From: an uncultured Rickettsiales bacterium
Lineage (GTDB): Bacteria > Myxococcota_A > UBA796 > UBA9615 > CAYRNR01
Reading direction: 5' to 3'
NCBI GenBank assembly: GCA_964584075.1
Contig: CAZOYV010000001.1
Span: 25,701 to 89,700, forward strand
Length of the DNA: 64,000 nucleotides
The notes beneath the pieces were generated by a model. That model saw only the letters and a list, made by a program, of their open reading frames with translations, was not told the origin of the DNA and ran no database searches. Positions 6,403 to 6,813 of this stretch are shown here, piece by piece (within the stretch, counting starts at the first letter, position 1; each line of letters begins with the position of its first letter). Position numbers and translations under genes: made by a program.

Positions 6403-6813
6403 TCAGTTGCAGTAGGCGTCGTTGCTGCGGAGGATCGCCCGGCACGGGTTGGTGTCGCAGTAGGCGTCGTTGCTGCGCAGGTAGGCCCGGCAGTCGCCGG
6501 TGTCGCAGTAGGCGTCGTTGTTGCGCAGGATCGCCTTGCAGTCCCCGGAGTCGCAGTAGGCGTCGTTGGAGCGGATGATCGCCTTGCGGTCGCCCGTGTC
6601 ACAGTAGGCGTCGTTGTAGCGCAGGATCGCCTTGCAGTCGCCGGTGTCGCAGTAGGCGTCGTTGTAGCGCAGCAGCGCCTTGCAGTCGCCCGGCGACCAC
6701 GACCGGTAGCCGGCCTTGAGCTGCAGCGGCCGATCGGCGATGGCGATGCCGGCCAGCGAGCCGAGCAGGGCCACCACCACCGGGATCGTGATCCACCATC
6801 GGGTCCTGGACAT
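6403..6813 (-). CDS. Small secreted protein made of about 7 tandem 16-aa Cys-containing repeats (consensus CDTGDCKAILRYNDAY)
   Basis: 136-aa ORF with an N-terminal signal/TM segment (ITIPVVVALLGSLAGIAIA), followed by a perfect 16-aa periodicity with 2 Cys per repeat. It is encoded by a 48-bp DNA tandem repeat. Confidence 0.55.
   Translation of the reverse strand: MSRTRWWITIPVVVALLGSLAGIAIADRPLQLKAGYRSWSPGDCKALLRYNDAYCDTGDCKAILRYNDAYCDTGDRKAIIRSNDAYCDSGDCKAILRNNDAYCDTGDCRAYLRSNDAYCDTNPCRAILRSNDAYCN
6416..6703. repeat. 48-bp tandem repeat, about 6 copies (gtcgttg.tgcgcag.atcgcc.tgcagtc.cc.gtgtcgcagtaggc)
   Basis: Direct reading of six consecutive 48-nt units with about 85-95% identity. They are in frame with the 6403..6813 ORF. 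They are not CRISPR-like: there are no unique spacers and the region is coding. Confidence 0.8.

Follow-up and report, generated by a model that had tools for sequence, protein, structure and literature searches.

The repeat gene and its product

The window analyzed here is a stretch of 64,000 nucleotides from an uncultured Rickettsiales bacterium that is placed within the Myxococcota_A in GTDB (assembly GCA_964584075.1, contig CAZOYV010000001.1, positions 25,701 to 89,700). It contains a minus-strand gene for a small protein of 136 amino acids, most of which is made up of 6 tandem copies of a 16-residue cysteine repeat (Table 1). The open reading frame (ORF) is a true gene and a member of a real family. 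The GC content at its 3 codon positions was 0.53, 0.52, and 0.97, and a value of 0.97 at third positions in a window with an overall GC content of 72.8% identifies the minus-strand frame as the coding frame.

The gene was found to be convergent with an ORF for a 380-aa protein with a signal peptide, the 2 stop codons being only 3 nt apart, and to be divergent from a gene for a pyrophosphate (PPi)-type phosphoenolpyruvate (PEP) carboxykinase. A first-pass annotation of the window, which had located the repeat gene just downstream of the secreted-protein gene, was therefore mistaken about the arrangement. A scan for promoters and terminators yielded a single promoter-like site, located within the coding region, and zero terminators. 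The exact 136-aa product was not found in a collection of 15 billion proteins, in which the glutamate dehydrogenase (GDH) of what seems to be the same contig as the window was present with 100% identity over 428 aa, or 96% of the query, our ORF starting 17 codons farther upstream; the source annotation may have left the repeat gene uncalled or have used another start.

The N-terminus of the protein (MSRTRWWITIPVVVALLGSLAGIAIA, followed by Asp) resembles a Sec signal peptide, with a cleavage site of the AxA type. The lead-in that follows contains a G-[YF]-[RK]-x-W motif, which is kept across the clade of the window protein. The predicted local distance difference test (pLDDT) score of the AlphaFold2 (AF2) model described below climbs to 75 at the lead-in, which probably caps the stack of repeats at its N-terminal end.

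Over positions 6409-6690, Tandem Repeats Finder (TRF) reported a period of 48 bp with 5.9 copies, 85% matches, and a score of 361. The units share the motif [ST]-x-D-C-[KR]-[AG]-h-h-x-[GN]-[ND]-x-s-[YWLF]-C, and a single Asn closes the protein after unit 6. Pairwise comparisons of the units gave 9 to 14 identical residues out of 16 and a DNA sequence identity of 65% to 92%. The 48-bp array goes well beyond what chance would give, and its period and motif are found again in independent assemblies. The description of the locus in the first-pass annotation, as a secreted mini-protein with a 16-aa, 2-Cys unit and an underlying 48-bp array, is borne out by the ORF, the TRF period, and the register of the units. 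The 16-aa period also stands in its further statement of about 7 perfect repeats, whereas the number of units is 6 and they are not perfect, and its estimate of 85% to 95% identity between the 48-bp units was too high.

Two Cys per unit, as also stated there, is correct for 5 of the 6 units. In unit 3, the first Cys is replaced by Arg76, so that the protein contains 11 rather than 12 Cys. The column equivalent to Arg76 was occupied by Cys in all of the 32 other six-unit proteins in our alignment, and Arg76 could be either a true variant or a sequencing error.

Table 1. Features of the repeat gene in the window and of its product
Feature	Position	Strand	Description
Coding sequence	6403-6813	-	Complete, 136 aa; ATG at 6811-6813, TGA at 6403-6405; from ORF list and sequence
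Putative Shine-Dalgarno-like site	6818-6826	-	GGAGGGAGG; 4 nt 5' of the ATG; direct sequence reading
Putative signal peptide, aa 1-26	6736-6813	-	MSRTRWWITIPVVVALLGSLAGIAIA; basic n-region, hydrophobic core, AIA-D site; sequence reading
Lead-in, aa 27-39	6697-6735	-	DRPLQLKAGYRSW; conserved G-[YF]-[RK]-x-W directly before unit 1
Six 48-bp/16-aa units, aa 40-135	6409-6696	-	TRF, register, identities, AF2 pLDDT 94-96
Unit 1	6649-6696	-	SPGDCKALLRYNDAYC
Unit 2	6601-6648	-	DTGDCKAILRYNDAYC
Unit 3	6553-6600	-	DTGDRKAIIRSNDAYC
Unit 4	6505-6552	-	DSGDCKAILRNNDAYC
Unit 5	6457-6504	-	DTGDCRAYLRSNDAYC
Unit 6	6409-6456	-	DTNPCRAILRSNDAYC
CGC codon (Arg76) in place of the first Cys of unit 3	6586-6588	-	11 Cys in total, an odd number
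144 bp (3 units) missing from locus L001	6505-6648	-	Breakpoint within a 32-nt exact repeat, ACAACGACGCCTACTGCGACACCGGCGACTGC; boundaries ambiguous by 32 nt

A family of exported cysteine repeat proteins

A word-based search identified 18 relatives of the window protein, all of which were metagenomic and unnamed. When 1.84 billion representative proteins were searched with a profile, 200 clusters were recovered at E <= 1e-3, including 133 at E <= 1e-10, with E-values of relatives reaching 1e-54. The family comprises at least 200 sequence clusters, is mostly metagenomic, and was previously undescribed. Homologs with 42% to 74% identity to the window protein were located in 43 loci of other assemblies. 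Among the GTDB species genomes there were 4 loci in metagenome-assembled genomes (MAGs) labeled "uncultured delta proteobacterium", "uncultured Archangium sp.", and "uncultured bacterium", and another 39 loci were found on Joint Genome Institute (JGI) contigs from many different environmental metagenomes. Further members were present in MAGs of Leptospiraceae. The closest named relative of the GDH in the window was from a Deltaproteobacteria MAG (83%), and the Ser/Thr kinases and sigma-54 activators encoded elsewhere in the window fit a placement within this group.

The consensus over 740 units was [ST]14-x15-[DN]16-C1-[KR]2-[AG]3-h4-h5-x6-[GN]7-[ND]8-x9-s10-[YLWF]11-C12, with Lys or Arg at position 2 in 81% and Ala or Gly at position 3 in 96% of the units. 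We define the family by a signal peptide or lipobox, a hydrophobic lead-in, and 3 to 7 units of the form [ST]-x-[DN]-C-[KR]-[AG]-h-h-x6-C with a period of 16 residues, after which the chain usually stops 1 to 2 residues beyond the last Cys. The window protein shows all of these features, except for the Cys-to-Arg replacement in unit 3.

The repeat was not recognized by existing models. Scans of the window protein against Pfam-A and NCBIfam gave sub-threshold noise alone (best E-value 0.013, 16 bits compared to a cut-off of 25.7). In scans of 33 six-unit members against the same databases the repeat was unmatched, the sole real match being to Somatomedin_B in the N-terminal part of 2 members, and no model covered the repeat in 10 long fusion proteins. 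Searches for sequence relatives in the PDB gave a best E-value of 0.5 with phmmer and of 0.058 with the profile (Drosophila CG11501), both of which were rejected as noise, and searches of the literature by sequence motif found nothing relevant. Cysteine-rich tandem repeats of secreted proteins have been described from the same or similar hosts, such as the Myxococcus cysteine-rich repeat TIGR02232, which is about 40 aa long with 6 Cys. TIGR02232 and other Myxococcota Cys-rich repeats resemble the family, which was found in Deltaproteobacteria or Myxococcota MAGs, in being secreted and in their host group, but the TIGR02232 unit is longer than 16 aa, and neither the window protein nor any of 33 family members had a match in NCBIfam. 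The 16-aa "DCKA" Cys repeat is a new repeat family among the exported, Cys-stabilized repeat proteins.

The number of units ranged from 3 to 7 across the family, with a mode of 5 to 6; proteins with 5 units, an odd number, were the commonest class in the wider family, and in the NDAYC/SDSYC clade, to which the window protein belongs, nearly every complete protein on the JGI contigs had 6 units. In 77 of 156 proteins, exactly 1 residue followed the last Cys. An N-terminal hydrophobic segment was present in all homologs, with a lipobox in some, and signal peptides or lipoboxes were found throughout the family. While the window protein is a stand-alone form of the module, in other proteins the module was located at the C-terminus, in lipoproteins with a predicted coiled coil, after a WG_beta_rep domain, or after a Somatomedin-B-like domain, and in 2 other proteins of no known identity it was located at the N-terminus. 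The fusions to the Somatomedin-B-like Cys-knot domain (PF01033) were represented by P0161, P0165, P0029, and P0060 (loci L011 to L013, positions 6001-6804). A gene for an FGE-sulfatase was located near these fusion loci, and an FGE-sulfatase-like ORF was located immediately downstream in locus L004. A second tandem repeat, AAGSPDVSPW, separated the signal peptide from the Cys repeats in L032 (positions 5755-6381), L033, and L034 (JGI Ga0105046, Ga0105044, and Ga0209490), with 5 copies in 2 of these contigs and 4 copies in the third, all within one clade.

Position-specific units point to an ancestral array

The units were not interchangeable. In 33 distinct six-unit homologs, Asp16 was present in units 2 to 5 in all 33 proteins and in unit 6 in none of them. 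Position 4 was preferentially Leu in units 1 and 2 and Val in units 3 and 4, and unit 5 had Tyr at this position in 21 of the 33 proteins. Best-match tests between distant proteins likewise favored the same unit index. The window protein keeps the family order, in that unit 5 reads DCRAYLR and unit 6 starts with TNPC. Since these unit-specific residues are conserved across proteins, the comparison indicates that the six-unit layout is ancestral and position-specific rather than the result of a recent expansion, which had been suggested from the similarity of the 48-bp units.

That similarity has another source. At positions where 2 units share the same residue, codon identity was 0.87 compared to the 0.71 expected from the codon bias of the window, so protein identity and codon bias account for most of the similarity of the units at the DNA level; the modest excess may reflect some homogenization. 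The dN/dS values for close pairs were 0 to 0.3, while distant high-GC pairs were not used, as their dS values are compressed by codon bias.

Predicted fold and disulfide pattern

A gap-free alignment of the 33 six-unit proteins was used as input to AF2. The top model had a pLDDT score of 84.8 and a predicted template modeling (pTM) score of 0.69, with the highest local scores in the repeats (94 to 96). Every unit in this model consists of an alpha-helix from position 15 to position 6, a two-residue turn, and a 3-10 turn at positions 9 to 11. No structural match to this helical repeat model was found in the PDB.

The residue statistics of the units independently agree with the helical model. 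Ser, Thr, Asp, and Asn are typical N-cap residues and Gly is a classic C-cap residue. The former accounted for 79% of the residues at position 14, 83% at position 16, and 78.5% at position 8, and Gly accounted for 32% at position 7. Pro was present in 0% to 0.1% of the units at positions 1 to 8 and reached 9% at position 9, where the short second helix begins. The adjacent hydrophobic residues at positions 4 and 5 present a pattern suggestive of helices, not of strands.

The strongest covariation was seen between the same positions in consecutive units (10-10', 9-9', 11-11', 8-8', and 6-6'). Furthermore, the identity at positions 9 to 11 was 0.62 to 0.70 between units within a protein compared to only 0.12 to 0.24 between proteins, whereas at positions 13, 14, 16, and 4 the uniformity within proteins was no greater than that between proteins. 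Both observations fit a parallel stacking of the units with ladders of like residues on the surface.

C1 nearly always opens the domain and C12 closes it, each unit contains 2 Cys, and both odd and even numbers of units are common, for which the simplest reading would be one C1-C12 cystine per unit, formed upon export. The export signals and the fusion of some members to the disulfide-rich Somatomedin-B domain fit an oxidizing, extracytoplasmic setting. The co-loss of Cys residues was of little use as a guide to disulfide partners, as too few units had lost a Cys and all losses were single. Taken together, there is moderate support for the prediction that the family is a disulfide-stapled helical repeat domain.

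Helical repeats with one cystine per unit are also seen in Sel1-like proteins, namely the Helicobacter cysteine-rich (Hcp) proteins HcpB and HcpC and COA7, but the Hcp proteins have 36-aa units as compared to the 16-aa units observed here, and the repeat lacked the features of the Sel1-like and TPR families (a unit of 34 to 36 aa, 2 antiparallel helices, and the consensus residues). Nor does the repeat resemble the CHCH (twin Cx9C) fold, which has 2 helices with 2 disulfides and an even number of helices, since the spacing is Cx10C and proteins with 5 units are the commonest.

A rigid scaffold or binding module as the proposed role

We consider it somewhat more probable than its negation, at roughly 0.55, that the protein is a rigid, disulfide-stapled scaffold or binding module that acts outside the cytoplasm and exposes a periodic surface, the fold and the binding role being the weaker parts of this explanation. 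The protein would be exported by the Sec pathway and cleaved to a mature form of about 110 aa, a single domain of six 16-residue units. Each unit would fold into an N-capped alpha-helix of 8 to 9 residues (positions 15 to 6), a Gly/Asn turn, and a 3-10 turn (positions 9 to 11), and the units would stack in parallel into a small rod. After export, a DsbA-type oxidation would link C1 to C12 in each unit and thereby staple every coil, and the core would be formed by positions 4, 5, and 11 together with the cystines. Positions 6 and 8 to 10 are near-uniform within a protein and differ between proteins, which suggests that they could form a periodic surface ladder. Such a protease-resistant module would serve as a scaffold for, or bind to, a periodic or multivalent partner, such as a polymer of the envelope or matrix or another protein.

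A more far-reaching version of this proposal, which we put forward only tentatively, is that the family represents a minimal new architecture, an alpha/3-10 solenoid with 16 residues per turn in which each coil is closed by a disulfide and the ladder (positions 6 and 8 to 10) is reset blockwise in each lineage, thereby providing a tunable, periodic recognition surface in Myxococcota-like bacteria, Leptospiraceae, and others, whether in stand-alone proteins or appended to secreted ones.

Several observations weigh against the scaffold or binding module. Only 1 of the 5 AF2 models was confident, the other 4 having pLDDT scores of about 50. A first AF2 run, based on a poorly registered alignment of proteins with mixed numbers of units, gave a pLDDT score of 43 and beta-like segments; the hint of a beta-hairpin from this run was dropped, as the gap-free alignment resulted in a confident helical model with which the capping statistics agree. 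Covariation between the same positions can also be produced by gene conversion between units. The disulfide pairing and the packing were deduced and not taken from the coordinates of the model, and in the window protein itself unit 3 has lost its first Cys, so that it cannot form a bond of its own and one Cys is left unpaired.

Nor did the gene neighborhoods point to a partner. None of the neighbors in the window recurred at other loci in tblastn searches, a clustering of 116 neighbor proteins recovered lineage-level synteny alone, and a Pfam scan of 75 neighbors identified 130 families, none of which was present in more than 2 loci. The neighbors are heterogeneous and offer no operon clue to function. 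As no ligand, partner, or conserved neighbor was found, the suggested scaffold or binding role draws on the analogy with other repeat domains.

Alternative explanations

Five other functions were considered. The first is a multi-headed canonical inhibitor of serine proteases, in which the disulfide loops of 12 residues would each expose C-[KR]-[AG]-h-h as a P2-P1-P1' reactive site, giving 6 trypsin-type heads. The reactive loop of Kunitz/BPTI inhibitors reads GPCKARIIRY, and like the window units, such as DCKAILRY and DCRAYLRS, BPTI residues 14 to 21 have a Cys followed by Lys or Arg, Ala or Gly, and hydrophobic residues and then Arg-Tyr, a resemblance that is local and covers 6 to 7 residues. 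The strong preferences at positions 2 and 3 are also consistent with an inhibitor, as are the small size, secretion, and disulfide-rich nature of the protein and the hairpin-like units in the first, low-confidence AF2 run. However, the Kunitz domain is an alpha/beta domain of about 58 aa with 6 Cys (paired 1-6, 2-4, and 3-5), whereas here there are 2 Cys per 16 aa, no match to PF00014 or to any other inhibitor family, and a confident model in which the segment is part of an alpha-helix, free of Pro at positions 1 to 8 and flanked by capping residues. The fixed number of units and their position-specific identities are unlike beads on a string. In addition, the contact residues of inhibitors are usually variable, whereas in the repeat conservation is highest at the putative contact positions. 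We regard an inhibitor as unlikely.

A quite unlikely function is that of a periplasmic thiol buffer for metals or redox, in which Cys kept reduced, for example by a DsbD-type pathway, would use the C-x4-C and C-x10-C pairs to scavenge oxidants or to bind soft metals such as Cu(I). Genes for thioredoxin-fold proteins adjoin family members in loci L007, L003, and L008, and one more AhpC-TSA protein was found among the neighbors. These amount to about 4 in about 35 loci, a weak enrichment on which we do not rely, and the window itself contains no such neighbor. Cys makes up 12.5% of the repeat, with C-x10-C and C-x4-C as the only spacings, and the repeat lacks His/Met as well as CxxC and CxC motifs. 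Metallothionein-like proteins contain about 20% to 30% Cys in CxC and CxxC clusters. The Cys residues always occur in pairs, from C1 at the start to C12 at the end, as expected of structural cystines, and the leader is of the Sec rather than the twin-arginine type. Metal or selenium binding, listed among the candidate roles in the first-pass annotation, found no positive evidence, with only 2 Cys per 16 residues.

For a polyprotein precursor, cuts in the D-[ST]-x-D linkers would release 6 disulfide-cyclized dodecapeptides with roles as signals, antimicrobials, or peptides akin to ribosomally synthesized and post-translationally modified peptides (RiPPs). Positions 5 to 11 vary from protein to protein and hardly at all among the units of one protein, as in multi-core precursors, and the chain stops right after the last Cys. 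On the other hand, no protease, modifying enzyme, or transporter recurred beside the gene in about 35 loci, and outside of close lineages no neighbor was shared that could correspond to the clustered maturation enzymes, protease, and exporter of RiPP or multi-core systems. The number of units is fixed at 5 to 6 with position-specific residues, large lipoproteins and secreted proteins also carry the module, and the 3 conserved hydrophobic positions per unit and the confident, compact single-domain model (pTM 0.69) speak for a folded domain. A precursor of this type seems very unlikely.

The number of units differed between near-identical contigs in 2 cases. Locus L001 (Logan, SRR7048225) was syntenic with the window and 99.6% identical to it over 5.6 kb, but its gene had only 3 units, corresponding to units 1, 5, and 6. 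The 2 ORFs were identical over their first 180 nt and their last 119 nt, stretches that overlap by 32 nt, and the junction in L001 was ACAACGACGCCTACTGCGACACCGGCGACTGC, which at 32 nt is the longest internal exact repeat in the array. The block missing in L001 includes the unit with the Cys-to-Arg replacement. In the second case, L036 had 6 units and L039 had 7, with flanks that were 98% to 99.5% identical. The variants differed by 48 and 144 bp, all in frame, and forms with 3 to 4 units were all found on short contigs. Logan contigs are built with 31-mers. Both cases could represent real alleles that arose by slippage or recombination, or a collapse during short-read assembly. Because 6 is the canonical number in independent assemblies, the length of the array in the window is not an expansion artifact, which had been raised as a concern, while a collapse may still account for L001. 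The suggestion of length variation between strains thus holds for the 6 versus 3 and 6 versus 7 units in near-identical contigs, with assembly collapse as a potential cause.

These differences, seen between contigs that are 98% to 99.6% identical and with a break in the longest internal repeat of 32 nt, might be taken to indicate a hypervariable, contingency-type surface gene, for which rapid changes in the number of 48-bp units would be the main "function". We find this highly improbable. Phase-variable loci are recognized by shifts in frame or promoter spacing, whereas with a unit of 48 bp and variants of 48 and 144 bp the changes stay in frame, and there is no on/off switching. Complete members of the clade almost always have 6 units, and the deviating numbers stem from short-read assemblies in which a collapse across the 32-nt repeat could have occurred. 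The contingency locus of the first-pass annotation thereby lacks positive evidence.

Last, a Cys-braced beta-solenoid acting as an ice-, mineral-, or polymer-binding ladder, also foreshadowed there as a "beta-solenoid/adhesin or antifreeze-like" protein, has a 16-residue period, same-position ladders, and homologs from many different environmental metagenomes in its favor, and yet it is the least credible of the alternatives, as the only confident model is helical, the adjacent hydrophobic residues at positions 4 and 5, the caps, and the Pro pattern fit helices rather than alternating strands, a T-x-T or similar flat motif is absent, and no antifreeze or ice-nucleation family was matched.

Two known proteins are nevertheless instructive for comparison. 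The antifreeze protein of Tenebrio molitor consists of 12-aa TCTxSxxCxxAx units, each with a disulfide within the coil, that form a rigid rod with same-position ladders. It thereby resembles the fold predicted here in that its tandem units are very short and a disulfide braces each of them, but it is a beta-helix with an ice-binding Thr ladder, in contrast to the helical prediction, the period of 16, and the lack of a T-x-T motif and of a family match in our case. Bacterial ice-nucleation proteins have a coil of 16 residues (PMC9418140), and their central repeats share the period, the tandem arrangement, and the same-position ladders with the family (PMC9418140); however, these repeats contain no Cys and form a beta-solenoid of 50 to 80 copies, as compared to 5 to 6 Cys-bracketed units with a helical prediction. 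Neither the T-x-T motif of the antifreeze protein nor the GYGSTxT/SxLx ladder motifs of the ice-nucleation proteins were present in the position table of the 740 units.

Genes in the vicinity of the repeat gene

The gene for the PPi-dependent PEP carboxykinase (6895/7021-10443, plus strand) was identified by a match to PF26300 in the syntenic gene of L001, the Pfam scan of the window ORF itself being blank. It is followed by a gene for a metallophosphoesterase and by genes for 2 large PPDK_N proteins, one of which is fused to a nucleotidyltransferase domain (11600-14086, plus strand, and 14083-17274, minus strand). These genes may form a cluster for PEP/pyruvate phosphotransfer.

On the other side of the repeat gene, a dispersed element of 28 to 31 nt (TGGGGTCAAGTCGCGTGTTGTATAGTTGCGC), which is strikingly AT-rich compared to the rest of the genome, was present in 2 exact copies located 213 nt apart (5258-5288 and 5471-5501, plus strand), upstream of the ORF for the 380-aa protein. 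A third copy with one mismatch was found 19 kb away (24830-24857, minus strand). By chance, no copy at all would be expected. At a distance of 2 kb from the repeat gene, a second and unrelated Cys-rich exported protein of 220 aa is encoded (3651-4313, minus strand). Its N-terminal segment is hydrophobic, it contains an Asp-rich tract, and Cys occurs at every 4 to 8 residues in its C-terminal half; it had no match in Pfam or NCBIfam.

At other loci, the neighbors with a thioredoxin fold included the product of a DsbD-like gene (DsbD_TM plus thioredoxin; 3162-4571, plus strand) in an Archangium-labeled MAG (L007), which was located 37 bp upstream of the family member on the same strand. An AhpC-TSA/Redoxin protein (10625-12586) in L003 and a Thioredox_DsbH protein (4171-6246) in L008 adjoined the respective family members, and the additional AhpC-TSA protein was identified among the 75 scanned neighbors.

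Implications

The finding has no bearing on a long-standing question and its importance is moderate. For curators of protein families, it is of interest that at least 200 clusters are without a model. If the prediction is true, few helical repeat units known to us would be as short as these, with their one cystine per coil, and they would be of interest to structural biologists and to designers of small, rigid scaffolds that are stabilized by oxidation. The family represents exported proteins of an unstudied class, from lineages that are poorly represented in culture (Deltaproteobacteria/Myxococcota-like MAGs and Leptospiraceae). That the surface positions are so uniform within a protein hints that its partner may be periodic.

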